Positions 25,580 through 61,375 of a DNA stretch of 64,000 nucleotides are shown here, in pieces; the stretch's first letter is position 1; each line of letters opens with the position of its first letter. The stretch spans positions 68,422 to 132,421 of the forward strand of contig JAYQQF010000009.1 in NCBI GenBank assembly GCA_038145705.1, given 5' to 3'. The DNA is from Alphaproteobacteria bacterium. Its GTDB lineage: Bacteria; Pseudomonadota; Alphaproteobacteria; SMXQ01. Both the position numbers and the translations under genes were made by a program. Under the pieces are notes generated by a model. It searched no databases. It worked only from the letters and a program-made list of their open reading frames with translations, and was not told the DNA's origin.

Positions 25580-26560
25580 ATGGGCGAGAACACGGGTTTT
25601 TCGACACGACAACTCGCGATCATCGAGAGGATTTTCGGTGTCGCGGGGCGGCCCGAGGGCGACGCCATCGTCATCGGCGACAGAAAAATCCCGGTTCGCG
25701 ACGGCGTCATTCTGCTGGATGAGGCGGTCGCCGCGGGCGAGGCGCTCAAGAGCGACGTCATTCGCTCCTTCGGCAACGAATGGCAGGCCTTTGCCGACCT
25801 CAAGCCCGAACATCAGCTCGAATTCGATTGCTATTTCGACGTCGTCGAGGTTGCCGGGCTTGCGGGCAAGTCGGTGATCGACCTCGGCTGCGGCATGGGG
25901 CGCTGGTCGCGTATCCTGATGGACCGCACCACGCCGGACTTCCTCGTTTGCGTGGATCTGTCCGATGCCATTTTCGTTGCCCGCGAAAACCTCAAGGGTT
26001 GCGACAACGTCGTGTTCATCAAGGCGGACCTCGAACACCTCGACTTTCCGGGATTCCGGTTCGACTTCGCCTTTTCGCTGGGTGTTCTGCATCATATTCC
26101 CGCCGGTATCGAGACGGCGGTGGGAAATATCCACGGCTATGCTGCCCGCTTTCTTTGCTATCTTTATTACAGCCTTGAAAACCGGGGCCTCGGCTTTCGC
26201 CTGCTGTTCGGCGCGGCGACCTTGGTGCGCAAGGTTCTGTCGTCGATCGGACATGAGGGCACGCGCCGCTTCCTGTCCTGGCTGATCGCGGTCTTCGTCT
26301 ACAAGCCGCTGACGCTGATCGCTGATCTCGCGGGCGCGCTTGGCATGAACAAGGAGCGCGTGCCGCTCAACGCCTATTGCGGGTTTTCGATCGGCCGTAT
26401 CCAGCAGGATGCCTATGATCGCTTCTTCACCAAGGTCGAGCATAGGTTTTCGCGCGCCGACATCCAGCGCATCTTTTCGCCTTACTGGGAGCGGATAACG
26501 ATCTCGGACATTCAGCCGTTCTGGCATTTCTTTTGCGAGGGACGGCGGGAGAGACGATGA
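25580..26560 (+). CDS. class I SAM-dependent methyltransferase
   Basis: SAM-binding motif VIDLGCGMGRWS. ATG at 25580. Confidence 0.7.
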   Translation: MGENTGFSTRQLAIIERIFGVAGRPEGDAIVIGDRKIPVRDGVILLDEAVAAGEALKSDVIRSFGNEWQAFADLKPEHQLEFDCYFDVVEVAGLAGKSVIDLGCGMGRWSRILMDRTTPDFLVCVDLSDAIFVARENLKGCDNVVFIKADLEHLDFPGFRFDFAFSLGVLHHIPAGIETAVGNIHGYAARFLCYLYYSLENRGLGFRLLFGAATLVRKVLSSIGHEGTRRFLSWLIAVFVYKPLTLIADLAGALGMNKERVPLNAYCGFSIGRIQQDAYDRFFTKVEHRFSRADIQRIFSPYWERITISDIQPFWHFFCEGRRERR

Positions 26561-27438
26561 CCTGGATTTCGTCCGTCGCCGGCAAACTGCCCTGGTGGGC
26601 GAAGATCGCGGGAAAGGTCGTCCTTTCCAGGCTGCCGGTCAGCGGCAAGGTGTGGCAGAAGATCGGCCTGTTTTCGCCGGGCCTGATGTGGCGGCCCGAT
26701 TACGCCATCGGCGTGTTCGATTTCCATTACCGCGCGGCGGGATCGCCCGCGGCGGGCTTTTCCTACCTGGAACTCGGCCCGGGGGATTCCGTGGCCTCGG
26801 CTGTCGTCGGCAAGGCCTATGGCGCGGCGCGAGCGTGGCTGGTCGATTCGGGGTCCTATGCCAGCCGGGACATGGATCTGTACCGGGAAGTGGTGCGGCG
26901 CCTCGCGGCGGAACGGCCGGGCACAGACCTCTCCGTCTTGCGCGATGCGCCGGGCCTCGACGCACTGCTGCAGGCCTGCGCGACGACCTTCCTTGAACAG
27001 GGCCTAGCCAGCCTCAAGCAGGTGCCGGCCGAAAGCTGCGATTTCATCTTTTCCGAAGCGGTGCTGGAGCACGTGCCCCTTGGCGAATTCGATGCCGTCA
27101 TGGGCGAACTGCACCGCATCCTGAAGCCGGGCGGGGTCGCCACGCACCGGGTCGATTTCCGCGATCACCTGGGCGGCGGCTGGAATAACCTGAGGTTTTC
27201 CGCCGATCTCTGGGAGTCGCCGTGGTTCGCCCTGCGGTCGGGGTTCTACACCAATCGGCTGCGTCTTTCGGTAATGACCGCGAGGCTGCAGGCAGCCGGT
27301 TTCGCTGTTGAGGTGTCGCAGCGGTCGTCCTGGCCCGCCCCGCCGATTGCGCGGGGCCTGCTGGATGGCGGCTTCCAGGGTCTTTCCGAGGAAGACCTGA
27401 TGACCGATCAGGCCCATATCCTTGCCAGAAAACCCTAG
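26557..27438 (+). CDS. class I SAM-dependent methyltransferase (Methyltransf_11-like)
   Basis: ATGA overlap with the upstream gene. Motifs LELGPGDS and HRILKPGGV. Confidence 0.7.
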   Translation: MTWISSVAGKLPWWAKIAGKVVLSRLPVSGKVWQKIGLFSPGLMWRPDYAIGVFDFHYRAAGSPAAGFSYLELGPGDSVASAVVGKAYGAARAWLVDSGSYASRDMDLYREVVRRLAAERPGTDLSVLRDAPGLDALLQACATTFLEQGLASLKQVPAESCDFIFSEAVLEHVPLGEFDAVMGELHRILKPGGVATHRVDFRDHLGGGWNNLRFSADLWESPWFALRSGFYTNRLRLSVMTARLQAAGFAVEVSQRSSWPAPPIARGLLDGGFQGLSEEDLMTDQAHILARKP

Positions 27439-27458
27439 GGTTTCGCCCCCGAACCTAT

Positions 27459-27535
27459 ATTCACGCGATGAATCACCGGTTCATTTTTAATTAACTATCT
27501 GATAATATTGAAATATTAATATTCATGGCGTGAAT
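27459..27535. promoter_or_regulatory. cluster of dyad-symmetric ATTCAY/RTGAAT motifs (candidate operator) in an AT-rich intergenic region
   Basis: ATTCACgcgATGAAT at 27459-27473, ATGAATcaccggTTCAT at 27468-27484 and ATTCATggcGTGAAT at 27521-27535. The last is the near reverse complement of the first, with a 47-bp AT-rich spacer between them. Confidence 0.4.
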
Positions 27536-27544
27536 AATCGCGCC

Positions 27545-27573
27545 TTGACGGGGCGGTCGTTAAGCTTATAAAT
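27545..27573 (+). promoter_or_regulatory. sigma-70-like promoter (TTGACG - 17 nt - ATAAAT) for the regulator / rfaH-like operon
   Basis: A near-consensus -35 and -10 with a 17-nt spacer, 25 bp upstream of the GTG start at 27598. An RBS-like AAGGGGA precedes that start. Confidence 0.45.
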
Positions 27574-27597
27574 TGCGCAGATTCAAGGGGATAATCC

Positions 27598-28239
27598 GTG
27601 TTTTCGACGAAGCCGCGCGCCAAGACCGAACTGGATTTCCTTGCCGCCCTCGAGCGCGGCGAGGTCGTAACCCAGGCAACCCTGTCGCGCCGGATCGGCA
27701 TCGCCATCGGGCTGGTCAACGCGCTTCTCAAGCGCGCGACGCTGAAGGGCTTCGTCAAGGTTCGCACCGCCCCCTACAAGCGTTACGCCTATTACCTCAC
27801 GCCCCGCGGCTTCGCCGAGAAGAGCCGTCTGGTGGCCGAATACCTCGAAGTTTCCCTCGAATTCTTCCGCGAGGCGCGGCGCCAGTACCAGGACCTGCTC
27901 TGGCGTGCCGAACAGTCGGGCCGCAAGCGTCTTGTCTTGGTCGGCGGCGGCGAACTTGCGGAAATCGCGGTCCTTGCGTCGCGCGATCTCGGCGTCGAAC
28001 TGGTCGCCGTCGTCGATGCCGAAACCAACAGGAGCAGCCTGTTCGGCCTTCCCGTCGTGAGGAACATTGATCAGGCCGCAGATTGGGACGCCGTCATCAT
28101 TACCGACAGCAAGCGGCCGCAGGCTGTATATGACGAGATTAAGGGCATTGTGGATCCCGCACGCTTGCTGGCCCCCGAACTGCTCAAGATTACCCTTGCA
28201 CCGTCCGAGGGGCTCGAAGAGGGGGAGAGCGCCGCATGA
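27598..28239 (+). CDS. transcriptional regulator with an N-terminal winged helix-turn-helix and a C-terminal CoA-binding-type Rossmann domain (Rex-like architecture)
   Basis: wHTH (TQATLSRRIGIAIGLVNALLKRATLKGFVKV) followed by a Rossmann-like module (RLVLVGGGELAEIAVLASRDLGVELVAVVD...GLPVV...DAVII). GTG start. Its stop overlaps the next gene's start (ATGA). Confidence 0.55.
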   Translation: MFSTKPRAKTELDFLAALERGEVVTQATLSRRIGIAIGLVNALLKRATLKGFVKVRTAPYKRYAYYLTPRGFAEKSRLVAEYLEVSLEFFREARRQYQDLLWRAEQSGRKRLVLVGGGELAEIAVLASRDLGVELVAVVDAETNRSSLFGLPVVRNIDQAADWDAVIITDSKRPQAVYDEIKGIVDPARLLAPELLKITLAPSEGLEEGESAA

Positions 28240-28733
28240 AGGGCTGGTACGTCGTCTGTACCCATCCGAATCAGGAAAGGCGCGCCGAGGAAAACCTCCG
28301 TCGCCAGGGATTCCGCCCTTGGGTGCCGAGTTTCGCGCGCCTGCGCCGGCATGCGCGTCGCGTCGAGCGGGTGCGCGCGCCGCTTTTCCCGGGCTATCTG
28401 TTCGTCGAACTTGACCCCGTGCGCGAACCCTGGTCTGCGATCAATTCGACCTTTGGCGTGAAGCGGCTGATTTGCCGCAAGGATGTTCCGGCCAGGCTGC
28501 CCGAGGGGTTCGCCGAAGATCTGCGCGCCAGCGTCGAATCGCCCGATTTCATTGCCCCCGAAGACCGGCTCGATGCCGGAGATCGGGTACGCATTACCGA
28601 TGGCCCGTTTGCCGATGCGGTCGGCTTTATCAGCTCGATCGATCCGCAGCAGAGGGTGTCGCTGCTTTTGAGTCTGCTCGGACGCGAAGTATCCGTCGTC
28701 GTGCCGCGCGACTTGGTCGTCCTCGCTTCCTGA
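28236..28733 (+). CDS. rfaH: RfaH-like specialised NusG paralog (operon-specific transcription antiterminator)
   Basis: NGN domain (MKGWYVVCTHPNQERRAEENLRRQG...PLFPGYLFVELDP) is collinear with E. coli RfaH (MQSWYLLYC...PLFPNYLFVEFDP). It has a KOW-like C-terminus and is 165 aa. There is no secE/rplK context. It lies immediately upstream of an exact ops element. Confidence 0.7.
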   Translation: MKGWYVVCTHPNQERRAEENLRRQGFRPWVPSFARLRRHARRVERVRAPLFPGYLFVELDPVREPWSAINSTFGVKRLICRKDVPARLPEGFAEDLRASVESPDFIAPEDRLDAGDRVRITDGPFADAVGFISSIDPQQRVSLLLSLLGREVSVVVPRDLVVLAS

Positions 28734-28761
28734 GCGGGGCGTGTTTTCAGTCCTGGTCGAT

Positions 28762-28782
28762 GGGTGAAAGCCGTTTTCACCC
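28762..28782 (+). other. perfect 8-bp hairpin (GGGTGAAA-gccgt-TTTCACCC) in the operon leader, 4 nt upstream of ops
   Basis: Read directly from the sequence. No downstream U-tract, so it is not an intrinsic terminator. Confidence 0.5.
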
Positions 28783-28786
28783 AAAC

Positions 28787-28798
28787 GGCGGTAGCGTG
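28787..28798 (+). promoter_or_regulatory. ops (operon polarity suppressor) element GGCGGTAGCGTG, the RfaH recruitment/pause site
   Basis: Exact 12/12 match to the canonical E. coli ops sequence on the non-template (coding) strand. It lies 53 nt after the rfaH-like stop and 36 nt before the first biosynthetic gene. Confidence 0.75.
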
Positions 28799-28833
28799 CC
28801 GAAAGCCGGCCGCAGTCATATGGGAAGGTTCGC

Positions 28834-29772
28834 ATGAAGATTTTCGTTACCGGGGGATGCGGGTACAAGGGCACGGTGCTGGTGCCGAAGCTCCTGCGCG
28901 ACGGTCATGAGGTCGAGGTCCTCGACACCCAGTGGTTCGGCAATTTCCTTCCGAAGCATGCGGCGCTGAAGGTGCGCAAGGGCAGCGTCCTCGATATCGA
29001 GCGCATCAACCTTGAAGGCTTTGATGCCATCATCCACCTGTCGTCGGTTGCCAACGATCCTTGCGGCGATCTCGACCCGAAACTCACGTGGGAGATCAGC
29101 GCGCTCGCGACCATGCAAATCGCCGACAAGGCGGTTCGCCAAGGGGTGAAGCAGTTCATCTATGCGTCGTCGGGCAGCGTTTACGGCGTCAAGGAGGAAG
29201 AGCAGGTCACCGAGGATCTCGAACTGCTCCCCATCTCCGAATACAACAAGACCAAGATGGTGGCGGAACGGGTGCTGCTGTCCTACGAGCCGCAGATGGC
29301 CATTCAAATCGTTCGACCGGCGACGGTCTGCGGGCTGTCGCCGCGCATGCGCCTCGATGTTTCGGTCAACATGCTGACCATGCAGGCGCTCGAGCGGGGG
29401 CAAATCACCGTGTTCGGCGGTGACCAGACGCGCCCCAACATCCACATGGACGACATCACCGACGTTTACCTGCATCTCCTCGGCAACCCGGAAATCCGCG
29501 GGGTTTACAACGCCGGCTTCGAAAATCTCTCGATCATGGAAATTGCCGAGATGGTGACGTCCTTCGTTCCGGCGAAGATCGTCAAGCAGGGATCGAACGA
29601 TCCGCGCTCCTATCGCGTCAATTCGGACAAGCTTCTTGCGACCGGTTTCACGCCGCGCAAGACGGTGCGCGACGCCATCGCCGAGATCGTCGCGGCCTAC
29701 AAGGCGGGCGATCTCAAGAACGAACCGCATTTCCACAATCTGAAGTGGATGCAGGAAAAGGTTTTGGGTTAG
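28834..29772 (+). CDS. NAD-dependent epimerase/dehydratase (extended SDR) family protein
   Basis: Motifs VTGGCGYKG and the catalytic YNKTK. RBS GGGAAGG. Confidence 0.75.
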   Translation: MKIFVTGGCGYKGTVLVPKLLRDGHEVEVLDTQWFGNFLPKHAALKVRKGSVLDIERINLEGFDAIIHLSSVANDPCGDLDPKLTWEISALATMQIADKAVRQGVKQFIYASSGSVYGVKEEEQVTEDLELLPISEYNKTKMVAERVLLSYEPQMAIQIVRPATVCGLSPRMRLDVSVNMLTMQALERGQITVFGGDQTRPNIHMDDITDVYLHLLGNPEIRGVYNAGFENLSIMEIAEMVTSFVPAKIVKQGSNDPRSYRVNSDKLLATGFTPRKTVRDAIAEIVAAYKAGDLKNEPHFHNLKWMQEKVLG

Positions 29773-32385: not shown

Positions 32386-33357
32386 ATGATGGACGCAACC
32401 ACCCGCAAGGCGCTTTACCGTGCCATGAGCCGCATCCGCACCGTCGAGGAACGGATCGCGGACCTGTATCCCGAGCAGGAGATGCGCTGTCCGGTGCATC
32501 TGTGCATCGGGCAGGAGGCGGCGGAGGCCGGAACCGGTCTGGCGCTCGATCGGCGCGACTATGCGCTGTCGGGGCACCGGTCCCATGGCCATTACCTTGC
32601 CAAGGGCGGCGATCTCAAGGGCATGATGGCTGAAATCTACGGCAAGGCCACGGGATGCGCGGGCGGCAAGGGCGGCTCCATGCACCTTGTCGATCTCGAT
32701 GCCGGGTTCCTCGGCGCCGTGCCCATCGTCGGCAGCACCATTCCCATCGCCGTCGGCACCGCCTTCAGTTCGAAAATGAAGGGCGAGGACCGGGTGACCA
32801 TGGTCTTCTTCGGCGACGGCGCGACGGAGGCGGGCGTGTTTCACGAAAGCCTCAACTTCGCCGCCCTGCATGCTCTGCCCATCGTCTTCGTCTGCGAAAA
32901 CAACCTCTATTCCGTGTATTCGCCGATGGGCGTGCGCCAGCCTGACGGGCGTTCCATCGCCGGGATTGCCGCGGCCCATGGTGTCGCGACCCAAACGGGC
33001 GACGGCAATGATGCCGAGGCGGTCTTCACGCTCGCCAGCAAAGCAGTGGATGCTGCCCGGCGCGGACAGGGGCCGGTTTTCATCGAGCTTTCCACCTATC
33101 GCTGGCGCGAGCATTGCGGACCCAATTTCGACAATCACATCGGCTATCGCACCGAGGCCGAGTACGAGGAATGGCGGCAGCGAGATCCGCTGGCGCTCTA
33201 CCGCGCCCGGCTGATTGCCGACGGCGCCGCCACGGGCGCGGAACTCGCCGCCATCGATGCGGAACTCGCCGCCGAAATGGAGGACGCCGTAACGTTCGCG
33301 AAGTCCTCCCCGTTCCCGCCGCGCGAGAGCGCCGGCCAGCACATCTACGCTGAGTGA
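32386..33357 (+). CDS. thiamine-diphosphate-dependent dehydrogenase E1 component, alpha subunit (PDH/acetoin-DH E1-alpha-like)
   Basis: ThDP-binding motif GDGATEAG...NN and E1-alpha-like length and pattern. Confidence 0.8.
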   Translation: MMDATTRKALYRAMSRIRTVEERIADLYPEQEMRCPVHLCIGQEAAEAGTGLALDRRDYALSGHRSHGHYLAKGGDLKGMMAEIYGKATGCAGGKGGSMHLVDLDAGFLGAVPIVGSTIPIAVGTAFSSKMKGEDRVTMVFFGDGATEAGVFHESLNFAALHALPIVFVCENNLYSVYSPMGVRQPDGRSIAGIAAAHGVATQTGDGNDAEAVFTLASKAVDAARRGQGPVFIELSTYRWREHCGPNFDNHIGYRTEAEYEEWRQRDPLALYRARLIADGAATGAELAAIDAELAAEMEDAVTFAKSSPFPPRESAGQHIYAE

Positions 33358-33367
33358 GGGCCGCGCC

Positions 33368-34426
33368 GTGACCAGACAGATCAAGTTTTTCGAAGCGCTG
33401 CGCGAAGGCCTTGACCAGTGCATGGGGGCCGATGCCTCCGTCTACGTGATGGGCCTCGGCGTGCCCGATCCGGGCGGAATCTTCGGTTCGACCAAGGGGC
33501 TTGTGGAAAAATACGGGGCATCCCGGGTGCTCGACATGCCGCTCGCCGAAAACACCATGACAGGCGTTGCCATCGGTTCGGCGCTGACGGGACTGCGGCC
33601 GGTGCTGACCCACCAGCGCGTCGATTTTGCCATCCTGTCGATGGAGCAGCTCGTCAACCAGGCGGCCAAGTGGCACTACATGTTCGACGGGCGCATGCGC
33701 GTGCCGCTGGTCGTGCGCATGATCATCGGGCGCGGCTGGGGGCAGGGCCCGCAGCATTCCCAGAGCCTGCAGGCGATGTTCGCCCAGGTGCCGGGCCTCA
33801 AGGTGGTAATGCCGACCACGGCGTATGACGCCAAGGGTCTGCTGATCGCCGCCATCGAGGACGATAACCCGGTGGTCATGCTCGAGCACCGCTGGCTTTA
33901 CGGCATCGCCGACGATGTCCCCGAAGAGGCCTATCGGGTTCCGCTCGGCAAGGCCAAGATCATGCGCGAGGGCGGCGACGTCACCATCGTCGGGCTGTCC
34001 TACATGAGCCTGGAAAGCCTGCGCGCGGCAGATATTCTGAAGGGCTACGGCATTTCCGCCGAGGTCATCGACCTTCGTTCGCTGCGTCCCCTCGATGAAG
34101 CGACGATCCTGGCGTCGTTGCGCAAGACGGGCCGTCTTGTCGTCACCGATACGGCGCACGGGCCTTTCGGGGCGACGTCGGAGATCATGGCGCTCGCGGC
34201 GGAAAAGGCATTCGGCGCCCTCAAGGCGGCGCCGTCGCGGGTCTGCCTGCCCGATCATCCAGCACCGACCAGTCCGGCGCTTGCCGACGATTTCTATCCG
34301 CGCGCCGGCCACATCGCCGCCGCGGTGCTGCGCCAGTTGGGCCGCGAACCGGATGCCGCGCTGTTTGCGCCGCCCGCGGGCCGCCGCCTCGACCAGCCCG
34401 ATTCATCGTTTCAGGGGCCATTCTGA
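33368..34426 (+). CDS. E1 component beta subunit (transketolase-like pyrimidine-binding domain plus C-terminal domain)
   Basis: E1-beta pattern (MPLAENTMTGVAIG...RVPLVVR...VVMLEH...VTIVGLS). GTG start. Confidence 0.8.
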   Translation: MTRQIKFFEALREGLDQCMGADASVYVMGLGVPDPGGIFGSTKGLVEKYGASRVLDMPLAENTMTGVAIGSALTGLRPVLTHQRVDFAILSMEQLVNQAAKWHYMFDGRMRVPLVVRMIIGRGWGQGPQHSQSLQAMFAQVPGLKVVMPTTAYDAKGLLIAAIEDDNPVVMLEHRWLYGIADDVPEEAYRVPLGKAKIMREGGDVTIVGLSYMSLESLRAADILKGYGISAEVIDLRSLRPLDEATILASLRKTGRLVVTDTAHGPFGATSEIMALAAEKAFGALKAAPSRVCLPDHPAPTSPALADDFYPRAGHIAAAVLRQLGREPDAALFAPPAGRRLDQPDSSFQGPF

Positions 34427-35619
34427 TGAGTGAATTGCTTTCCAGCCTGTCGACGTCGCTCGGTACCGCTTGCGCAGTCTGTGGTGGGCCCACGGAGTCG
34501 ACCCTTGAACTGCCCGGGTTGCCTCTGACCGATACCTTCACGCGGACGCCGGTCGACAATCCCGTGAGCGGCATCGACCAGACGTTCAGGTTCTGCGAGG
34601 CCTGCGGGCACGGCCAGTTGGGGCATCAGGTCGCGCCCGAGGTGCTTTACGGCAGCAATTACTGTTTCCGCACATCGGCAAGCCCGACGGCGCGAAAGGG
34701 TACCGATTTCTTCATGTCGCTGCTGGACGAGGTAGCGGCAGGACGCCAGTTTCGCTCGGCCATCGATCTTGGCTGCAACGATCTTTTCCTTCTTGATCGT
34801 GTCGGCGACCGTGCCGCATTGCGCACAGGCGTCGATCCGATCTGGAAGGGGCGCGAGCATGAAATGGATGGCCAGCCCATCCGCGTGATCGGCGCCCCCA
34901 TCGAGGACGTGGATCTTTCCGTGCTGGACCAGAAGCCGGACCTCGTGATGTGCCGCCACACGCTCGAACACATCGCGCGTCCGCGCGATGTCGTTGCGGG
35001 ACTGCTGGCGGGCGCGGCTGACGATGCCATTTTCGTTTTCGAGGTTCCGGGCATCGAGGCTCTGGTCAACCGCTGTCGTTTCGACCAGGTGTTTCACCAG
35101 CATCTCCAGTATTTTTCGATGCGGTCGTTTCTGAAAATGCTGGAAGGCCTTGGCGCCAGGGCCATCGCGGTGAAGTCGCACTATCACGACTGGGGCGCCT
35201 TCGCGGTCGCGTTCGCCAAGGGTGGCGATGGTGGCGCGGCGCCCCTGCTGGATGCCCCGGACGGGGAGAAGATGTCTTCTCGGCTGAAGGTTTTCCGCTC
35301 GCAGATGGCTGCGAACGCGGAATTGATACGATTGATCGATGGACCGGCCTTCGGTTACGGCGCCGCGCAGATGTTGCCGGTGCTCGCCTATCACATGGGC
35401 ACGGATCTCGGGTTTCTCGACGCGGTGATCGATGACGATCCGGAAAAGGAAGGCGTATTCTACTGGAACCTGCCGGTCAGCATCCGGCCGCTCGCAGCGG
35501 TGGGAAGCCTCGATGCCGCGACGGTCCTGATTACGGCGGTCGACAGCGCGCAGCCCATTTTGCGCCGTCTTCTCGAAAGGCGGCCCCGTCACATCATTCA
35601 TCCCTTCAACATGATTTAA
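34426..35619 (+). CDS. C-methyltransferase-family protein (N-terminal zinc ribbon, SAM methyltransferase, C-terminal C-MT domain; TylC3/NDP-hexose C-methyltransferase-like)
   Basis: CAVCG...CEACGHG zinc-binding pairs, a methyltransferase core (IDLGCNDLF) and a long C-terminal domain, as in sugar C-methyltransferases. Confidence 0.6.
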   Translation: MSELLSSLSTSLGTACAVCGGPTESTLELPGLPLTDTFTRTPVDNPVSGIDQTFRFCEACGHGQLGHQVAPEVLYGSNYCFRTSASPTARKGTDFFMSLLDEVAAGRQFRSAIDLGCNDLFLLDRVGDRAALRTGVDPIWKGREHEMDGQPIRVIGAPIEDVDLSVLDQKPDLVMCRHTLEHIARPRDVVAGLLAGAADDAIFVFEVPGIEALVNRCRFDQVFHQHLQYFSMRSFLKMLEGLGARAIAVKSHYHDWGAFAVAFAKGGDGGAAPLLDAPDGEKMSSRLKVFRSQMAANAELIRLIDGPAFGYGAAQMLPVLAYHMGTDLGFLDAVIDDDPEKEGVFYWNLPVSIRPLAAVGSLDAATVLITAVDSAQPILRRLLERRPRHIIHPFNMI

Positions 35620-35640
35620 ATCGGAAGCAGGTCGCAACAG

Positions 35641-36330
35641 ATGTCAGACGGCAAAGCCAGGGAATTCCAGAACCAGAGCCAGATCGACGACTATGGGAGC
35701 CGTGGCGGCGTATCCTTCGGGCCGTGGACGAGCCACATCTGGCGCACCGACCCACGCCACCTCGCCTTTCTGATGTCGCGCTACAAGTTCATTTCGAAGA
35801 TGCTGGCCGGACGCGAAAAGGCCTTCGAGGTCGGCTGCGGCGATGCGGCGGGCACACCGGTCGTGCTGCAAACCGTGAAGCGCGTCTTCGCCATCGATTT
35901 CGAGCCGCTGGTTCTCGAGGATGCGCGCAGGCGCTATGCCGCGGAAGGAGACGACCGGGTGCGTTTCGCCGTTCACGATATCTGCAGCGCGCCGGTGGAT
36001 GAAAAAGGTTTCAACGGCGCCTATTGCCTGGACGTGATCGAGCACGTCCCCGCCGAGCGCGAAGCCCTTTTCATGCGCAACATCGTCGCATCCCTCGATC
36101 GCCACGGCGTGTTCATCATCGGCACGCCCAATGTGACGGCCCAGCAGTATTCCAGCCCGGCGAGCATGGAAGGGCATATCAACCTCAAGAGTGCCAAGAC
36201 GCTGCATGAACTGATGGCCGTTCATTTTCACAATGTTTTCGACTTTTCGATGAATGACGAAGTCGTGCACACGGGGTACTCGCCGATGGCGCATTACCTG
36301 TTCTGCATGGGCGTCGGGGTCAAGTCGTAG
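35641..36330 (+). CDS. class I SAM-dependent methyltransferase
   Basis: Motifs FEVGCGDAAG and CLDVIEHV. Confidence 0.65.
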   Translation: MSDGKAREFQNQSQIDDYGSRGGVSFGPWTSHIWRTDPRHLAFLMSRYKFISKMLAGREKAFEVGCGDAAGTPVVLQTVKRVFAIDFEPLVLEDARRRYAAEGDDRVRFAVHDICSAPVDEKGFNGAYCLDVIEHVPAEREALFMRNIVASLDRHGVFIIGTPNVTAQQYSSPASMEGHINLKSAKTLHELMAVHFHNVFDFSMNDEVVHTGYSPMAHYLFCMGVGVKS

Positions 36331-36353
36331 GAACTGGCGCGGGGTATCGAATC

Positions 36354-37133
36354 ATGGACCTTGGAATCAAAGGCAAGCTGGCGCTGGTGACGGGGGCGGG
36401 TCGCGGCCTTGGCCGCGCGATTGCGAAGTCCCTTGCCGACGAGGGCGCGCGGGTCGTCGCGACGTCGCGGACGGAAGCCGACCTCGATGAATTGATGGCC
36501 GAGATCGGCGGAACTGGCGCCGGGCATCTTTCGGTCCCGATGGACATCGTGCCCGAGGGCGGGCCGGCGGAGCTTTTGCGCAAGTCACGCGAAGGCGGTT
36601 TCGATCATTTCGACATCGCCGTCCATAACGTCGGCGGGACCCTCGACATAAAGGATCCTTTCTGCTCCGTCGAGGACTGGCGGCGCGTCTACCGCTTCAA
36701 CTTCGAGGTCGCGGTCGAGCTGAACGCCTTGATCGTGCCCGCCATGCAGAAGCGCAAATGGGGCCGTGTCGTGCATATTTCCTCGATTTCGGCGATGGAA
36801 AACCATGGTCCCGTCACCTATTGCGCGATGAAGGCGGCATTGACCGCCTATACCCGCAGTTTCGGCGGCGTTGTCGCGCCCGACGGCGTGGTGATCTCGG
36901 CTGTCCTGCCGGGCGCCGTATTCACCGAAGGCGGTTACTGGGATACCACATCGCGGGAAAACCCCGAGCATGTGCGCAAGTATCTGACGGAACGTCAGCG
37001 CATCGGCCGCTTCGGCCGGCCCGAGGAAATCGGTAACTACGTAGCCTACCTCTGTTCCGAACTCGCATCCTTCAGCACGGGCAGCATCGTGCCGGTGGAC
37101 GGCGGGCAGGGCAGGGGCTATTTCGGCCAGTAA
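36354..37133 (+). CDS. SDR family oxidoreductase
   Basis: TGAGRGLG with a YxxxK core (YCAMKAA). Confidence 0.8.
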   Translation: MDLGIKGKLALVTGAGRGLGRAIAKSLADEGARVVATSRTEADLDELMAEIGGTGAGHLSVPMDIVPEGGPAELLRKSREGGFDHFDIAVHNVGGTLDIKDPFCSVEDWRRVYRFNFEVAVELNALIVPAMQKRKWGRVVHISSISAMENHGPVTYCAMKAALTAYTRSFGGVVAPDGVVISAVLPGAVFTEGGYWDTTSRENPEHVRKYLTERQRIGRFGRPEEIGNYVAYLCSELASFSTGSIVPVDGGQGRGYFGQ

Positions 37134-37164
37134 TCAGGGCCAGTAATCAGGGCAGGAACCCAAT

Positions 37165-37953
37165 ATGACCGCCAACGTGCTCAACAAGGATTTGCGCCGG
37201 CTGATCGTCGACATGACTGTCGCCGGGCGCGACGGGCATATCCCGAGCGCCTTCTCGATCGTGGATATCATCACCTATCTTTACGACCATGTTCTTCGGA
37301 TCGATCCGAAGAAACCGGATGATCCCGCGCGCGATTATTTCGTCCTCAGCAAGGGGCATGGATGCCTGGCGCTTTACGTCAACCTGCGCCGGCATGGGTT
37401 CATTACCGATCACGATATCGACACCTTCTGCAAGAAGGGCGGGATCCTCGGCGAGCATCCCGATCTGTGCAAGGTGCCGGGCGCCGAAGCGTCGTCGGGC
37501 TCCCTCGGCCATGGGCTCAGTTTTGCGGTCGGCATCGCGATGGGGCACAAGATCAAGAAGATGAACAACCGCATGTTCGTCCTGATCGGCGATGGCGAAA
37601 GCCACGAAGGCACCGTCTGGGAAGCAGCCCATGTCGCGGCCAATCACCGGCTGAAGAACCTCTGCGTGATCGTCGACTGGAACCGCTCGGGCATGCAGCT
37701 TCTGCCGATGGACGACCTGCCGGCGAAGTGGCGGGCCTTCGGCTGGCACACCCAGGAAATCGACGGCCACGACGAGGCCCAGATCAAGGCTGCCTGCGAT
37801 GCGGTCGCGGCCAAGACGACGGACCAGCCGAGCGTGATCGTTGCTCATACGGTCAAAGGCAAGGGCGTGCCGATGATCGAAGGACACGGCATGTGGCATC
37901 ACCGCATTCCCAACAAGGACGAATACGCTCACATCATGGAAGTGTTGTCATGA
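37165..37953 (+). CDS. transketolase, N-terminal (ThDP-binding) subunit of a split transketolase
   Basis: HIPSAFSIVDI...LSKGHG...GSLGHGL...GDGESHEG, the transketolase N-section. Confidence 0.8.
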   Translation: MTANVLNKDLRRLIVDMTVAGRDGHIPSAFSIVDIITYLYDHVLRIDPKKPDDPARDYFVLSKGHGCLALYVNLRRHGFITDHDIDTFCKKGGILGEHPDLCKVPGAEASSGSLGHGLSFAVGIAMGHKIKKMNNRMFVLIGDGESHEGTVWEAAHVAANHRLKNLCVIVDWNRSGMQLLPMDDLPAKWRAFGWHTQEIDGHDEAQIKAACDAVAAKTTDQPSVIVAHTVKGKGVPMIEGHGMWHHRIPNKDEYAHIMEVLS

Positions 37954-38882
37954 CCCCGGAAAAAGCCCTGCGTCAGCAGTTCGCCGATACCATGCTGGCG
38001 GTCGGCCAGGAAGACAGAGACCTCGTCGTCATCGTCGGCGACATCAGTCACGGCATCCTCCAGCCCTTCGCCAAGGCCTGCCCGGAGCGTTATTTCAACA
38101 TCGGCATCCTTGAACCGACGACCATGAGCCTGACCGCCGGCATGGCCCGCGTCGGTTTGTATCCGGTGCTGCACACGATCGCCCCGTTCCTGATCGAGCG
38201 CTCGTTCGAGCAGATCAAGCTCGATTTCTGCTATCACAAGCTGCACGGCAACATCATCACCGTGGGCAGCGCCTTCGACTATTCGAACCTCGGCTGTACC
38301 CATCACTGTTACGGCGACTTCGCCTTGCTCAAGACCCTGCCGGGTGTCGAGATCACCTACCCGGGATCGGCCGTCGAGTTCGATGCGCTCTTCCGTCAGG
38401 CCTATCGCAACGACAAGGTGACCTATTACCGCCTGCCCGGTACGCCGCACGGGGTCGTGTTCAAGCCCGAGGACGTCGTGCTAGGCAGGGGCATCAAGGT
38501 GGCAGAGGGGTCCGATATCACCCTGATCGGGACCGGCCCGCACCTGCGCACCGCACTGGATGTGCGTGACCGCCTGGCGGCCGAAGGCAAGAGCGCCGAG
38601 GTGCTCTACATCCATACCATCCGCCCCCTCGATTGCGAGCTGGTGCGCGCGAGCATTGCCAAGACCCGGAGGGCCGTGGTGATCGAGGAACACATGCGAT
38701 CGGGCGGGCTCGGCGACGAGGTGCTGAGAGAAACGCGGGACATTCCCGATGTCAAGTTTGCCTCCGCTTCGATCCCGGACCGCTTTGTCACCGGCTACGG
38801 TACCTACGAGGACCTGCTCGAGAGCATCGGGCTGACGGTTGATGGGGTCCTGTCGCTGATCGCGGAAAAGCGTTTCTTCTGA
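37950..38882 (+). CDS. transketolase, C-terminal (pyrimidine-binding plus C-terminal domain) subunit
   Basis: ATGA overlap with the upstream subunit. Transketolase C-section motifs (YFNIGILEPTTMSLTAG...). Confidence 0.8.
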   Translation: MTPEKALRQQFADTMLAVGQEDRDLVVIVGDISHGILQPFAKACPERYFNIGILEPTTMSLTAGMARVGLYPVLHTIAPFLIERSFEQIKLDFCYHKLHGNIITVGSAFDYSNLGCTHHCYGDFALLKTLPGVEITYPGSAVEFDALFRQAYRNDKVTYYRLPGTPHGVVFKPEDVVLGRGIKVAEGSDITLIGTGPHLRTALDVRDRLAAEGKSAEVLYIHTIRPLDCELVRASIAKTRRAVVIEEHMRSGGLGDEVLRETRDIPDVKFASASIPDRFVTGYGTYEDLLESIGLTVDGVLSLIAEKRFF

Positions 38883-50437: not shown

Positions 50438-51438
50438 TGGCATCGCTCAGGGGAAGCGATTCGGACGAGTTTACCATCGTCGGCGGATTTAAATCCGATG
50501 TGCCGCTACGGCTGTCAGTCGCTATCATCACCTATAACCAACGCGATCGAATTGCAGCTCTTCTCGATGATCTGGTTTCCGAACTGGGGACAATGACCGG
50601 CGTCGAGGTCATCGTCAGCGACGATGGGTCGCAAGACGGAACACAGGATCTGCTGCGGGACTATGCGGCGCGTTGGCCGCATCTAATTTGGGCGATTCTT
50701 GGCAACAGGAACGTCGGCATCTGGGCTAACGCCAACCGGGTTCGGAACGCCTCGAGGGGCGCGTATGTGGCCCCGATGGCCGGCGACGACCGCATTTTGT
50801 CAGGTAAATTCCGTCGTCAGATGGATTTTCTTGATCACCATCCGGATGTCGGAGTGTGCTACCACGATGTCGAAGTTATCTATGATCCGCCCCTGCGGCG
50901 ACCTTGGCTCTTCAGCAGCCGGCATTGCCAGCGGCGGGGAGATGCCGCGACGGTGATTCGCTATGGAGCATTCTTTCCGTGTCAGTCAGTCATGGGGCGC
51001 CGCGCTGTGTTTCAGGCGGCCGCGACGCGGCCAGAGGTCGGAATTTCCGGGGACTCGCTGTTCTATGCCGAGGCTCTGGCGAATACGGGGAGCAAAATCG
51101 ACTTTATCCCTGGGGTATACATGCAATACATCCGCCATGATTCGAACGTTACGACGATGTGGGCTTCGGAGATCGCCGAGGAAAAAAGCGCGGAACTCGG
51201 CATTTTGAGCACCCAGTTTCCGCAATACGAACGGGAACTGCGGTTGCGGCGCTCAGACCATGAATTTATCCTCGCTATTCGCAGTTTGTTTGATGGCCGG
51301 TTGTGGACGGTACTCCGCCACCTAGGCCGGAGTCTGGTATTGGGCCGCTGGACCTGGCCGGCGCTCGGCATCGCATTTGTGGAGGCACGTTTTTTTGTGA
51401 GCCATAGATTAAAGGAAATTCTGCGTGTTGCTGCTTAG
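50437..51438 (+). CDS. glycosyltransferase family 2
   Basis: SVAIITYNQ...SDDGSQDGT...GDD GT-A motifs. GTG start overlapping the upstream stop. Confidence 0.8.
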   Translation: MASLRGSDSDEFTIVGGFKSDVPLRLSVAIITYNQRDRIAALLDDLVSELGTMTGVEVIVSDDGSQDGTQDLLRDYAARWPHLIWAILGNRNVGIWANANRVRNASRGAYVAPMAGDDRILSGKFRRQMDFLDHHPDVGVCYHDVEVIYDPPLRRPWLFSSRHCQRRGDAATVIRYGAFFPCQSVMGRRAVFQAAATRPEVGISGDSLFYAEALANTGSKIDFIPGVYMQYIRHDSNVTTMWASEIAEEKSAELGILSTQFPQYERELRLRRSDHEFILAIRSLFDGRLWTVLRHLGRSLVLGRWTWPALGIAFVEARFFVSHRLKEILRVAA

Positions 51439-56416: not shown

Positions 56417-57592
56417 GTGAAAACACTTCTTGTCGGCACCAGCTTCAGTGCGGCGCCCGTTTACGCAGCCCTCAAGAGAAAAGGGCATCATGTTGCCGTT
56501 TGTGGCGGCATCCCGGGTGATCCCTGCCATCAGTACGCGGACGCATCCATCCACATCGATTATTCCTCACGCGAGGATCTTTTGGCGGCAGTAAAGAGCG
56601 GGGGGTACGACTTCATCGTGCCGACCTGCAATGATACATCGTACATGTCGACCGCGTGGGTCGCGGCCCAACTCGGCTATCCCGGATTCGATTCATTTCG
56701 AACGACCGAAATCCTGCATAACAAACCGCTGTTTCGCGAATTCGCGCTGGGAGTGGGGCTTCCGGTTCCCGCCGCGTATAGGGTTGTCTCCGCCAGCACG
56801 GATGTGGCGGGCAAAGTTCGCTTCCCCGTCCTGGTAAAGCCGTCCGACAGTTTCAGCGGCCGGGGCGTGACCAAGGTCGGGCGACCAGATGAACTAGCGC
56901 TAGCCATCGACGCGGCTTTGGCGGTATCGCACGATGGCAATGCCGTTGTTGAGGACTTTATCGAAGGAACCTTGCACAGCCACTCGGCCTTCATCGTCGA
57001 TCAAAAGATCATTCTCGATTTTTTTGTCGATGAATACTGTACGGTTTACCCCTACCAGGTGAATTGCTCCAATCACCCGTCCGGGCTGGCTGACGACCTG
57101 CGGCGCCAGACTCGCGACGTTATAACGAAGATGATTGTTGCCCTCGGACTATCCGATGGCCTGCTCCATACCCAGTTCATCGCGCAGGACGACAGGATCC
57201 AGATCATTGAGTGTATGCGCCGCGCGCCAGGCGACCTCTACGGACAATTTGTCGGCGCTTCGACCGGGATTGATTACGCCGATTTATATGTGCGCCCCTT
57301 CGTGGGCGAGAAAATTCCGACGGATATTGTCGTCCAGAGCCCAAAACCGATGGCGCGCCACACCATCAGTGTCGATACACCCCAAATCGTCGCAGATTTC
57401 ACCGTTACCGGACCAGCGAAGTCTGTACGCATCATTCCCCTCAAGGAAAGCGGCGAATTATTGGGCGTTGCTCCCTTCGACAAGCTGGCAATCGTTTTTG
57501 CCGAATTCGAAACGATGGATGATATGCTGAACTTGGCGCCCTTTTTCGATCGCTACATTGTCATCGAGCCACTGGACATCCAATGCCGATAA
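56417..57592 (+). CDS. ATP-grasp domain protein (carboxylate-amine ligase)
   Basis: ATP-grasp core (FPVLVKPSDSFSGRGV...VVEDFIEG). GTG start. Confidence 0.7.
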   Translation: MKTLLVGTSFSAAPVYAALKRKGHHVAVCGGIPGDPCHQYADASIHIDYSSREDLLAAVKSGGYDFIVPTCNDTSYMSTAWVAAQLGYPGFDSFRTTEILHNKPLFREFALGVGLPVPAAYRVVSASTDVAGKVRFPVLVKPSDSFSGRGVTKVGRPDELALAIDAALAVSHDGNAVVEDFIEGTLHSHSAFIVDQKIILDFFVDEYCTVYPYQVNCSNHPSGLADDLRRQTRDVITKMIVALGLSDGLLHTQFIAQDDRIQIIECMRRAPGDLYGQFVGASTGIDYADLYVRPFVGEKIPTDIVVQSPKPMARHTISVDTPQIVADFTVTGPAKSVRIIPLKESGELLGVAPFDKLAIVFAEFETMDDMLNLAPFFDRYIVIEPLDIQCR

Positions 57593-58767
57593 TACAGCCC
57601 CCGACACCATTATCGCTCGCGGTCAAGGGCGGACCACGCAAGCTGCGGGTTGCGTTTCTGGGCGGGGGTATAGATTCCGCAGTCGGACAGGTTCATCAGA
57701 TCGCGATCGGCATGGATCAAAGATTCGACTTGGTCGCGGGCTGTTTCAGCCGCGAGATGGAAATCAATCAGTCGAGCGGCGTTGCCTATGGCGTTGATCC
57801 GGATCATGTATACCCTTCGCTCGAAGACCTGATTGCTGCCGAGGCCAAATCAATTGATGCGTTCGTGGTCGTCACGCCGACCGATCAGCATCTGGACCAT
57901 GTGCTCCGCTGCGTAACGGCGGGCATTCCTGTGATCTGCGAAAAGGCCTTGGCACTGGACGATGCCGAAGCGATGAAAATCAAAGAAGCGCTGGATCGCC
58001 ACAACGGCTACTTGGCGGTGACATACAATTATCTTGGATATCCGATGTTGCGCGAACTGAAGGATATCATCGCACGGGGCCAGCTTGGGGCGATCCATCA
58101 GGTGCATGTTGAAATGCCGCAGGAGGGCTTCAGCAAGGTCCGGATTCAAGACGGGAACCCTATCGTTCCGCAGGACTGGAGATTGCATGACGGAAACGTC
58201 CCGACGGTATCGCTCGATCTCGGTGTTCATTTGCACATTATCACCAAATTCCTGACCGATGCCGTTCCATTGGAAACGGTCGCTACGGCGAGTAGCTTTG
58301 GTAACTTTGACAATATCGTCGATAACGTAATTGCGACGGTTCGCTACAGCGGCGACATGGTTACCAGCATCTGGTACGGAAAGGTCGCGTTGGGGTGCCG
58401 AAATGGCTTGAAAGTCAGAGTCTTCGGTGAAGCGGGTGCGGCAGAGTGGTGCCAGGAATATCCCGAAGACCTCCTACTCAGTGACCGTTACGGTCGGCGC
58501 TTCCGGCTGGACCGTGGGCATCCGGATGTGCGCGTGTCTAACGCTGCTCGTTATACTCGTTTCAAGGCGGGGCATCCCACGGGGTTCATTGAGGCGTTCG
58601 CGAACCTTTATGTCGATATAGCCGACCACCTTCTGCGCTTTCATGAAAGCAGGCAATGTGGCGAAACCGAATACGTTTACGGGATCGATGGCGCCATCGA
58701 GGGGTTGCGGCTACTGAGCGCGATTGCCCATTCTGCACGGGAAAAGCGCTGGGTACGCGTGTCCTGA
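57583..58767 (+). CDS. Gfo/Idh/MocA family oxidoreductase
   Basis: N-terminal NAD(P) Rossmann domain (RVAFLGGG) with EKA and a C-terminal alpha/beta domain. Confidence 0.8.
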   Translation: MPIIQPPTPLSLAVKGGPRKLRVAFLGGGIDSAVGQVHQIAIGMDQRFDLVAGCFSREMEINQSSGVAYGVDPDHVYPSLEDLIAAEAKSIDAFVVVTPTDQHLDHVLRCVTAGIPVICEKALALDDAEAMKIKEALDRHNGYLAVTYNYLGYPMLRELKDIIARGQLGAIHQVHVEMPQEGFSKVRIQDGNPIVPQDWRLHDGNVPTVSLDLGVHLHIITKFLTDAVPLETVATASSFGNFDNIVDNVIATVRYSGDMVTSIWYGKVALGCRNGLKVRVFGEAGAAEWCQEYPEDLLLSDRYGRRFRLDRGHPDVRVSNAARYTRFKAGHPTGFIEAFANLYVDIADHLLRFHESRQCGETEYVYGIDGAIEGLRLLSAIAHSAREKRWVRVS

Positions 58768-60082: not shown

Positions 60083-60092
60083 CGGGTCGATC

Positions 60093-61355: not shown

Positions 61356-61375
61356 TTCTTTTCGGGAAGTGCGCG

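Follow-up and report, generated by a model that had tools for sequence, protein, structure and literature searches.

Here we report that the intergenic island at 27439-27597 of a 64-kb stretch of alphaproteobacterial DNA (hereafter referred to as the window) is probably the promoter–operator region of a long glycan operon, in which dyad-symmetric elements serve as the sites of the winged-helix regulator encoded by the first gene. The two 15-bp palindromes in the island, sites A and B, belong to a motif that precedes the same regulator gene in well over 100 other bacterial loci, with GC contents from 42% to 70%. The motif is coupled to the regulator gene and recurs at fixed positions relative to the promoter. 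On the basis of this distribution, the palindrome is very probably the binding site of the adjacent regulator, which probably represses its own promoter. Collectively, our findings describe the promoter architecture of the regulator loci and provide an uncharacterised regulator family with a concrete DNA target to test, RTTCAY-N3-RTGAAY, while overturning no known principle.

Sequence elements of the island

The island spans precisely the interval that separates a methyltransferase open reading frame, whose stop codon ends at 27438, from the regulator open reading frame, which begins with GTG at 27598. Every feature listed in an earlier, sequence-only reading of this DNA was found where that reading had placed it. 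The island is AT-rich as described there, with a GC content of 40.9% (29.3% over 27459-27540), although the background of the whole window is 61.5% GC and not the roughly 65% quoted. The predicted distal operator, site A (ATTCACGCGATGAAT), occupies 27459-27473 (core 27460-27472, centre 27466), and the predicted proximal operator, site B (ATTCATGGCGTGAAT), occupies 27521-27535 (core 27522-27534, centre 27528). As the sequence-only reading had reported, these dyads are near reverse complements with 47 nt between them; their extended 16-nt arms are 94% complementary, and their centres lie 62 bp apart. Like the island itself and the AT-rich spacer between the sites (27474-27520), both are features of the duplex, assigned to neither strand.

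The pattern ATTCAYNNNRTGAAT, with at most one mismatch, matches sites A and B only within the 64-kb window. Two copies of it arose in 0 of 20,000 dinucleotide shuffles of the island, a test that is weak alone, as the pattern was picked post hoc. A weight matrix trained exclusively on other loci (maximum, 23.9 bits) assigned 22.1 bits to site B and 17.6 bits to site A, the top two scores in the window, followed by a third match at 13.8 bits. Since a matrix derived from other loci ranks both of them at the top of the window, sites A and B go beyond chance; they are real, and they are its sole two strong matches.

The remaining palindromes of the island fared differently. The sequence-only reading had proposed an operator array of three dyads, in which sites A and B are supported, whereas the third, overlapping dyad (ATGAATCACCGGTTCAT, 27468-27484) is not: it scores −7.6 with the matrix, and its geometry, TGAA-N7-TTCA, is not among the enriched palindromes of related loci. 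The spacer between the operators holds its right arm, TTCAT (27480-27484), together with three AATATT repeats starting at 27504, 27512 and 27518. These repeats are present as described, but they are not conserved even in relatives of 70-72% identity; we rejected them as functional sites and read them as compositional. Comparison of relatives, the palindrome list and the weight matrix detected no conserved site in this spacer. A match to the IHF consensus WATCARNNNNTTR lies there on the minus strand (TATCAGATAGTTA, 27492-27504), with its centre, 27498, at the midpoint of sites A and B, and a relative of 92% identity (L081) retains the consensus, with differences confined to degenerate positions. 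IHF-consensus matches occur upstream of regulator genes at 0.39 versus 0.055 per kb (about sevenfold), a weak excess that is partly compositional, these regions being AT-biased, and the IHF-like site midway between A and B is therefore only a lead.

On the plus strand, 9 nt separate the end of site B from a −35 hexamer, TTGACG (27545-27550), which is followed after a spacer of 16 nt by a −10 hexamer, TATAAA (27567-27572). The latter can alternatively be read as ATAAAT at 17 nt, the form in which the sequence-only reading had described a near-consensus sigma-70 promoter. That description holds: the element consists of two hexamers with a spacer in the 16-18 nt range of sigma-70-type promoters, and both boxes are kept in relatives of 70-72% identity while the surrounding bases diverge. 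The boxes are conserved in L081, L084, L087, L001 and L002, with TTGACG invariant among the window, L081, L084 and L087, and the −10 box conserved as TATAmA (TATACC in L001 and TATATC in L002, at a 17-nt spacer). Transcription is predicted to start near 27579-27581, which places the centres of sites A and B at about −114 and −52, respectively. A Shine–Dalgarno sequence, AAGGGGA (27585-27591), and the regulator GTG start codon (27598-27600) follow on the plus strand, and AAGGGAT and the position of the start are conserved. Two further candidates in this region were discarded. A second promoter over site B (TTGAAA ... AATAAT) has a 19-nt spacer, was missed by the promoter scan and is not conserved in L084 or L087, which are relatives of 70-72% identity. 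In relatives, a pseudo-site, TTCAYnnnTTGAC, lies over the −35 box; its window counterpart is decayed, at −3.1 bits, and was not counted as a site.

Conservation of the palindrome and its coupling to the regulator gene

The phylogenetic comparison that had been suggested as a check on the dyads bore out the palindrome of sites A and B. Within 200 nt upstream of the orthologous regulator gene, the family consensus RTTCAY-N3-RTGAAY (TTCA-N5-TGAA) is present at 76 of 82 loci, and when all palindromes of the form 4-mer, gap, reverse complement were listed without bias, TTCA-N5-TGAA ranked first, again at 76/82 loci. We counted 79 exact copies of the core TTCAYNNNRTGAA in the 21.5 kb that lie upstream (3.68 per kb) and 8 in 652 kb of flanking sequence (0.012 per kb), an enrichment of approximately 300-fold; 64 of 83 loci carry the exact core, and 77 of 83 carry it with at most one mismatch. 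At least five of the eight background hits are themselves embedded in promoters, two preceding a second regulator paralogue and three lying at promoter-like sequences internal to the same clusters. Several genomes have two or more cassettes that share a common core motif, with a site directly upstream of each paralogue. The motif lends itself to regulon prediction by genome scanning.

When the RfaH-like gene served as the anchor for a sample of 80 independent metagenomic loci, the site was found in 33 of 38 loci with the regulator and in 1 of 22 without it (Fisher p = 1.6e-10). Moreover, the site persists in L084 and L087, where the regulator is present and the RfaH-like gene is absent. Because of this asymmetry and this retention, we conclude that the site tracks the regulator gene and not the RfaH-like gene. 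Site B is conserved in L081, L084, L087, L001 and L002. Site A is present in L081 and decayed in L084 and L087; being known from the window and L081 alone, it offers too little divergence to demonstrate selection.

The site also keeps a limited set of positions relative to the promoter. Counted between the first base of TTGAC and that of the site, the offsets cluster at −22 (15), −19 (8), +6 (22, within the spacer), +25 (10, over the −10 box) and +28 (13, at +1), and the same arrangements recur in independent loci. The offset in the window is −23, which puts site B in the class just upstream of the −35 box. Most relatives have one site in the spacer or over −10/+1, whereas both window sites lie upstream of −35.

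The regulator, its operon and a model of control

The regulator (27598-28239, plus strand) consists of 213 residues, in which a winged helix of MarR type (residues 5-67) is followed by a helix of 38 residues (69-106) and then by a small Rossmann-like domain (111-200). In a structure model with a mean pLDDT of 85.5, the winged helix superposes on the MarR-family structures 3bj6 and 4gxo at 1.9-2.0 Å over 82 columns, and a fold search found no full-length structural match to the model. N41, R46 and K50 are invariant in the predicted recognition helix, as are K61 and R62 in the wing, and the protein is on these grounds a plausible DNA binder. The protein falls below the Pfam cut-offs for MarR_2 (21.4 bits versus 27) and HTH_24 (20.2 versus 21.9); among 32 family members, 27 have sub-threshold MarR_2 matches and 7 have weak TrmB matches. 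TIGR04176, the MarR family EPS-associated regulator, covers the N-terminal 98 residues at 46.7 bits against a cut-off of 88. By sequence comparison, the family is related to TIGR04176 but is distinct from it and longer, and it comprises about 325 clusters at 50% identity at E ≤ 1e-30 and about 1,600 at E ≤ 1e-10. Towards the C terminus, a weak local similarity (E = 0.007) links residues 112-155 to the N-terminal domain of perosamine N-acetyltransferase, and the C-terminal domain of the regulator has weak NeuD and CoA_binding_3 matches. From its resemblance to the nucleotide-sugar-binding N-terminal domain of the NeuD/PglD/PerB acetyltransferases, the Rossmann-like domain probably has a nucleotide or nucleotide-sugar as its ligand, which would modulate DNA binding.

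The start of the next gene, which encodes a 165-residue RfaH-like NusG paralogue (28236-28733, plus strand), overlaps the regulator stop codon by 4 nt, and in 66 of 84 loci an RfaH-like gene immediately follows that of the regulator. The protein exceeds the cut-offs for NusG (71.2 bits) and KOW (22.5 bits). It does not reach that of the RfaH equivalog TIGR01955 (119.3 bits versus 144.5), although RfaH is still the top NusG subfamily. A putative terminator-like hairpin with a T-run (28721-28749, plus strand) overlaps the RfaH-like stop codon, as one does in L081, and may limit the transcription from the regulator promoter that reaches the ops element. It is followed on the same strand by a second hairpin, GGGTGAAA-gccg-TTTTCACCC (28762-28782), and an exact ops element, GGCGGTAGCGTG (28787-28798), the sole match in the window. 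The 12-nt element, GGCGGTAGnnTG, thus lies on the coding strand upstream of its target genes. At the same relative position, ops is exact in 25 loci and found in about 42 with [G/T] at the first position; an extended form, TTCACCCGAAs[G/T]GCGGTAGCRTG, occurs in about 40 loci, and a further conserved stretch, TTCACCCGAA, precedes the element. A co-directional array of glycan-biosynthesis genes spanning about 35-36 kb follows (28834-63900, plus strand), which encodes NDP-sugar epimerases/dehydratases, an RfaE-like kinase/nucleotidyltransferase, TPP enzymes, methyltransferases, GT4/GT2/GT61 glycosyltransferases, an ABC exporter, RmlA/RmlB-like enzymes and a DegT aminotransferase. The 4-nt gene overlap, the exact ops element and the co-directional glycan genes support the proposal of the sequence-only reading that the island controls an operon of the regulator, the rfaH-like gene and the glycan genes.

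These features suggest a model in which one regulator dimer binds site B, next to the −35 box, and a second dimer binds site A further upstream. Since 62 bp correspond to about six helical turns, the two dimers would occupy the same face of the DNA, and the AT-rich stretch between them, perhaps bent by IHF, could allow them to cooperate. The resulting complex would set the activity of TTGACG-N16-TATAAA, with repression as the most likely sign. Because the transcript of this promoter encodes the regulator itself, the circuit would be autoregulatory. The same transcript would encode the translationally coupled RfaH-like antiterminator, which would be loaded onto RNA polymerase at ops (28787), ahead of the ~35 kb of glycan genes. 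As the promoter would drive the antiterminator that ops loads, the island may act as the entry switch of the whole cluster, and mutation of an operator could switch surface-polysaccharide clusters on or off. We also consider an extension that we regard as speculative and rather doubtful: the regulator may use its PglD/PerB-like domain to sense a nucleotide-sugar product or intermediate of the cluster and may, along with operator, RfaH-like gene and extended ops, form a self-contained, transferable cassette for the control of glycan operons, whose paralogues could cross-bind and thereby rank the glycan loci of a genome. The putative nucleotide-sugar feedback is directly testable.

Repression is favoured because a regulator bound in the spacer, over −10 or at +1 would exclude RNA polymerase. 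In the window, neither operator overlaps the −35 box, the spacer, the −10 box or +1, and sites centred near −52 and −114 would also allow the same regulator to activate, through contact with the alpha C-terminal domain or sigma region 4 from about −52 or by displacing a silencer from the AT-rich DNA, with site A and the AT-rich tract forming an upstream enhancer-like module. Some MarR/SlyA-type proteins are counter-silencers at AT-rich promoters, and eight loci carry the site upstream of −35 alone. However, the sites of most relatives could not activate a promoter with a 17-bp spacer, and the upstream site is often part of an array of 14-bp period that crosses the −35 box. Orthologues of one family could differ in sign, although this is not the simplest reading, and we consider activation in the window unlikely, with a chance that is small but appreciable.

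Autorepression further presupposes that the adjacent regulator is the binder. If another protein, such as a global envelope or glycan regulator, bound the palindrome and the adjacent regulator had a different target, the common core in multi-cassette genomes could reflect a shared trans-acting factor. The site nevertheless follows the regulator gene and neither the RfaH-like gene nor the type of cluster, stands immediately before each paralogue, is nearly absent from ~650 kb of flanking DNA and occurs in strong form only twice in the window, so that a separate binder is improbable. It is more improbable still that the dyads act as nucleic-acid hairpins, either in RNA, as a hairpin or terminator that serves the upstream methyltransferase genes, or as a non-template-strand hairpin that recruits the RfaH-like protein, even though RfaH reads such a DNA hairpin (PMC5995543), a stem of 5-6 bp could form in each dyad, A is complementary to B and the region folds better than its shuffles (z = −3.1). 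The base identity of the dyad is itself conserved, with no covariation between its two variable, potentially pairing positions (p = 0.82). The predicted minimum-energy fold contains no A:B pairing, and we accordingly rejected a long A:B hairpin or terminator. In the majority of loci, the site either occurs singly or is embedded in promoter elements, a canonical ops is already present downstream, and no Rfam family, including JUMPstart, matched 27300-28900 at E ≤ 1. Given the conserved bases, the lack of covariation and the location of both window sites ahead of the predicted start of transcription, a protein site on duplex DNA is the better reading. Finally, AT-rich DNA is rich in short palindromes, and the island is only mildly unusual in its total of 6-N3-6 dyads, a count attained by 676 of 20,000 shuffles. 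Chance low-complexity features are nonetheless scarcely credible as a source of an element found at fixed promoter offsets in more than 100 loci of such varied GC content; for sites A and B this explanation is refuted, whereas it still accounts for the third dyad and the AATATT repeats.

Comparison with known regulatory systems

The arrangement resembles MarR-family autoregulation, as exemplified by Escherichia coli MarR at marO, in which a winged-helix dimer binds usually two palindromic operators near its own −35/−10 elements and ligand relieves repression. The winged helix, the palindromic operators by the promoter of the regulator's own gene and the usual pair of sites are common to both. 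Operators overlap that promoter across the family, whereas those of the window abut the core promoter upstream of −35. The present protein is sub-threshold in Pfam and, instead of the single ~140-residue domain with a dimer interface of N- and C-terminal helices, has a separate α/β domain of Rossmann-like type after its long helix. The palindrome is compact, at 13-15 bp, and its half-site centres, 8-9 bp apart, leave little room for a MarR-type dimer. TrmB-type regulators of Thermococcales likewise combine a winged helix, a long helix and a C-terminal ligand domain, respond to sugar effectors and bind TCAC...GTGA sites over or next to promoter elements. They share with the present family this domain order and palindromic, promoter-linked sites, and differ from it in the C-terminal domain, the spacing (N5, versus N3 here) and the domain of life; the Pfam TrmB matches of the family are only weak. 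The Rex redox repressors also pair a winged helix with a Rossmann domain, and their operator, TGTGAA-gap-TTCACA, contains identical half-site pentamers, GTGAA and TTCAC. The half-site order is reversed, however (TTCAC-N3-GTGAA here versus GTGAA-gap-TTCAC), and we rejected a Rex-like reading; no Rex structure was among the top 50 fold matches of the regulator model, and no Rex sequence match was found.

The MarR-family repressor ScoC requires two separated palindromic operators and represses by looping (PMC12297555). It provides a precedent for two operators in one promoter region and for cooperation between sites A and B across 62 bp, although ScoC is a tetrameric global regulator of Gram-positive bacteria and looping in the window is only proposed. 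As in RfaH/ops systems, an RfaH-like NusG paralogue is accompanied by an exact 12-nt ops element before a long glycan operon (PMC5995543, PMC7593976), whereas here the RfaH-like gene, with its sub-equivalog score, is second in its own target operon, behind a dedicated regulator and operator. A literature search found no description of the regulator family or its operator, and the only related statement is that an HTH regulator gene accompanies one of the RfaH clusters, CL4 (PMC7593976). In Bacteroides fragilis, as cited in PMC7593976, a NusG paralogue, UpxY, and a second small regulator, UpxZ, head each of several capsule loci per genome. In the account given there, UpxZ inhibits the UpxY of other loci; it is not a DNA-binding winged helix, and the taxa and proteins are unrelated to those described here. 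If regulator paralogues cross-bind, they would be an operator-based counterpart of this UpxY/UpxZ cross-regulation. We know of no operator of the RTTCAY-N3-RTGAAY kind at UpxY/UpxZ loci.

The operator–promoter, regulator, RfaH-like gene and extended ops recur together as a control cassette heading alphaproteobacterial glycan clusters. In Caulobacter, IHF-assisted promoter control by GafY and dedicated anti-termination by GafZ govern a gene transfer agent cluster (PMC11150451). GafY, an activator, and GafZ, which is not a NusG paralogue, are unrelated to the proteins described here, but the two systems share, in alphaproteobacteria, a two-tier logic in which control at the promoter would be followed by read-through of a long cluster.

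The AT-rich island and its sequence features

The island (27439–27597) occupies the entire gap between a methyltransferase open reading frame (ORF; 26533–27438) and a 213-codon ORF with a GTG start codon at 27598, which encodes the regulator. Its GC content is 40.9%, and that of the segment 27459–27540 is 29.3%, as compared with 61.5% for the window. Every feature listed in the sequence-only reading is present: three dyads, namely site A (ATTCACGCGATGAAT, 27459–27473), site B (ATTCATGGCGTGAAT, 27521–27535) and an overlapping third dyad (ATGAATcaccggTTCAT, 27468–27484), three copies of AATATT, and a promoter in which TTGACG (27545–27550) is followed by TATAAA after 16 nt or ATAAAT after 17 nt. 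Sites A and B are reverse complements except for the central triplet, with a centre-to-centre distance of 62 bp. They are the sole matches to the 15-mer pattern, with at most one mismatch, in a scan of the 64-kb window, and none of 20,000 dinucleotide-shuffled versions of the island contained two copies of the pattern; as the shuffled pattern was picked post hoc from the sequence, we place weight on the independent comparative tests. Site B (22.1 bits) and site A (17.6 bits) are also the top two 17-mers of the window according to a weight matrix trained without the window and its 92% identity relative.

The third-best weight-matrix score (13.8 bits; CGCTCAGACCATGAATT, 51250–51266) falls inside a GT2 glycosyltransferase ORF, at its 3′ end, with the RmlB-like gene some 160 nt downstream, and could represent a weak internal site or a chance match. 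A GC-rich 7-nt inverted repeat (CGCCCCC, 27444–27450; GGGGCGG, 27551–27557) flanks the AT-rich island. The RNA folding prediction (z = −3.1) pairs its arms, the right one being located within the promoter spacer, and this repeat is probably due to chance.

Conservation of the site and its association with the regulator gene

A word-indexed protein search identified more than 1,100 relatives of the regulator, and a profile search of cluster representatives identified 325 at E ≤ 1e-30 and 1,609 at E ≤ 1e-10. We compared 80 genome loci with identities of 45–68%, mostly from Alphaproteobacteria (Chelatococcus, Kiloniella, Thalassospira, Ferrovibrio, Micavibrio and Hyphomicrobium, among others), and added closer metagenomic relatives with identities of 92%, 72% and 70%. 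This phylogenetic footprint, a check proposed in the sequence-only reading, revealed that the dyad is conserved: among all palindromes composed of a 4-mer, a gap and its reverse complement, scored with no prior pattern, TTCA-N5-TGAA ranks first (76 of 82 loci), followed by its extensions GTTC-N7-GAAC and CGTT-N9-AACG. In a non-redundant set of 83 loci, we counted 79 exact copies of the core TTCAYNNNRTGAA within the 21.5 kb located between −250 and +10 relative to the regulator start, versus 8 in the other 652 kb (3.68 versus 0.012 per kb). At least five of these eight background matches are real sites; two precede a second, divergent regulator paralogue in one locus (L009), and three lie in promoter-like contexts within the same clusters. 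The 83 loci contain one site in 44 cases, two in 32, three in 1 and none in 6, with spacings of 14, 21–24, 27–28, 47, 55–56, 62 and 96 bp. Close relatives share site B, the −35 and −10 boxes and the ribosome-binding site, with divergence in the adjoining bases, and site A is retained solely in the 92% relative. Overall, sites A and B and the promoter are real features, far beyond chance.

A further 80 metagenomic loci were collected independently, with the RfaH-like gene instead of the regulator as the anchor. Among them, TTCA-N5-TGAA lies within 250 nt of the regulator start in 33 of the 38 loci that have the regulator directly upstream and enough upstream sequence, versus 1 of the 22 loci lacking the regulator gene (400 nt upstream of the RfaH-like gene; Fisher p = 1.6e-10). 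Of the five loci that have the regulator but lack the motif, four (L095, L112, L113 and L169) carry the variant GTTCGC-N3-RTGAAC. Furthermore, two relatives with 70–72% identity, L084 (4731–5978) and L087 (6001–7248), keep the regulator, site B, the promoter and the left-hand synteny (ClpB, M23 peptidase and methyltransferases) without an RfaH-like gene, and have a SIS/GmhA-like gene after the regulator. Thus, the site goes with the regulator gene, a pattern that we interpret as the signature of an autoregulated transcription factor.

The variant half-site, with TTCG for TTCA, stands in for the standard site or occurs beside it in the metagenomic loci L095, L112, L113, L126, L127, L151 and L169. 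At +798, L087 retains an ops-like sequence carrying a single mismatch. Many genomes carry at least two copies of the regulator cassette (contig pairs L024 and L051, L033 and L064, L036 and L041, L006 and L007, L022 and L037, and L043 and L053). In L009 (1865–2527, minus strand, and 2530–2580), two paralogous regulator genes are divergently oriented 1.4 kb apart, the second being preceded by TTGACA, a site, TGTAAT and a second site. The core motif is identical in all cassette copies, so the regulator of one cassette could bind the sites of another.

Site placement and the mode of control

A dyad could act as a hairpin or as a protein site on duplex DNA. The would-be pairing positions Y5 and R9 (C/G 28, T/G 21, C/A 16 and T/A 14) do not covary (p = 0.82), and the half-site bases that flank them keep their identity. 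Moreover, both window sites precede the predicted transcription start, sites A and B are unpaired in the predicted minimum-energy RNA fold, and a search of Rfam returned no family match. These observations fit putative protein sites on duplex DNA rather than hairpins.

Measured between the first bases of TTGAC and of the site core, the offsets across loci are sharply clustered at a few values: −22 (15 cases) and −19 (8 cases), in which the site ends 9 and 6 nt upstream of the −35 box, respectively; +6 (22 cases), in which the site fills the spacer; +25 (10 cases), over the −10 box; and +28 (13 cases), directly past it. The commonest layout, seen again in the independent metagenomic set, comprises a site, about 9 nt, TTGACG, a second site and the −10 box. 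In several genomes, the inter-site stretch is itself a degenerate site with its right half forming the −35 box (TTCAYnnnTTGAC), generating a three-unit array with a 14-bp period. Occupancy of a site in the spacer, over the −10 box or at +1 would be mutually exclusive with bound RNA polymerase, from which we infer that members of the regulator family are mainly repressors. The window falls in a minority upstream-only class (offset −23). Decay has reduced its degenerate −35 unit to a score of −3.1 bits and the distal site A has appeared, making the sign of regulation less certain at this promoter. The sequence-only proposal of an operator array controlling the regulator, RfaH-like and glycan operon is supported in outline.

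The spacer between the sites contains an exact match (TATCAGATAGTTA, minus strand, 27492–27504) to the IHF consensus WATCARNNNNTTR, centred at 27498, next to the midpoint of the operator centres (27497), and in the 92% relative this stretch differs at degenerate consensus positions only. As the family-wide enrichment of the match is modest and confounded by base composition, we treat possible IHF-assisted looping between sites A and B as a lead.

The regulator, the downstream genes and known systems

The regulator ORF (27598–28239, plus strand) has sub-threshold matches to MarR_2, HTH_24 and TIGR04176 (MarR, EPS-associated) and a weak C-terminal match to CoA_binding_3 (NeuD-like). Its AlphaFold model (mean pLDDT 85.5) comprises a winged helix (residues 5–67), a single 38-residue helix (69–106) and a small α/β domain (111–200) with a GGGELAE glycine-rich turn. 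In Foldseek searches, MarR proteins match the winged helix only, and no solved structure matches the whole chain. The single PDB sequence match aligns residues 112–155 with the N-terminal domain of perosamine N-acetyltransferase. In the PglD/PerB family, this domain contributes to binding the nucleotide moiety of the sugar substrate, hence our tentative proposal that the effector may be a nucleotide-sugar.

The RfaH-like NusG paralogue (28236–28733, plus strand) has NusG and KOW domains above threshold, with RfaH as the best-scoring subfamily (119 bits versus an equivalog cut-off of 144.5). Its start codon overlaps the regulator stop codon by 4 nt (28236–28239), suggesting translational coupling. 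A terminator-like GC hairpin with a T-run (28721–28749, plus strand), also present in L081, the 92% relative, overlaps the RfaH-like stop codon upstream of ops, so that transcripts initiated at the island promoter may reach ops only in part. A further hairpin (28762–28782, plus strand) precedes the exact E. coli-type ops element GGCGGTAGCGTG (28787–28798, plus strand), the sole ops match in the window; a 12-nt ops signal of this kind is found in the leaders of RfaH-controlled operons (PMC5995543). The ops region has no match to Rfam JUMPstart. In this clade (about 40 related loci), the ops element, located roughly 1.2 kb past the regulator start, has a conserved upstream extension, TTCACCCGAAs, which usually pairs as a hairpin with a left arm, GGGTGAA. 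The operator pentamers GTGAA and TTCAC recur in these arms in reversed order.

From 28834 to at least 63.9 kb, every sizeable ORF of the glycan array lies on the plus strand, and the products include NDP-sugar-modifying enzymes, methyltransferases, three glycosyltransferase families, an ABC exporter, RmlA/RmlB-like enzymes and a DegT aminotransferase. Unusual tailoring genes (32386–38882 and 56417–63869) encode TPP-dependent E1 α/β subunits, a split transketolase, C-methyltransferases, ATP-grasp and radical SAM proteins and an FkbM methyltransferase, hinting at a heavily modified or branched-chain sugar.

On the features tested, the regulator does not qualify as a member of the MarR family proper, of TIGR04176 or of Rex. 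One RfaH cluster associated with an HTH regulator gene was noted previously (PMC7593976), and we found no description of the regulator family, operator or promoter architecture in the open-access literature. The value of our analysis is that an uncharacterised regulator family of considerable size, encoded at the start of glycan clusters, is now linked to a precise motif and architecture. IHF-assisted promoter control in combination with anti-termination is documented in Caulobacter (PMC11150451), and ScoC, a MarR-family repressor that requires two separated operators and loops DNA, provides a precedent for possible looping between two operators (PMC12297555). By analogy, the island would work like a MarR-type autoregulatory operator–promoter feeding an RfaH/ops antitermination module, the latter resembling that of enterobacterial polysaccharide operons.
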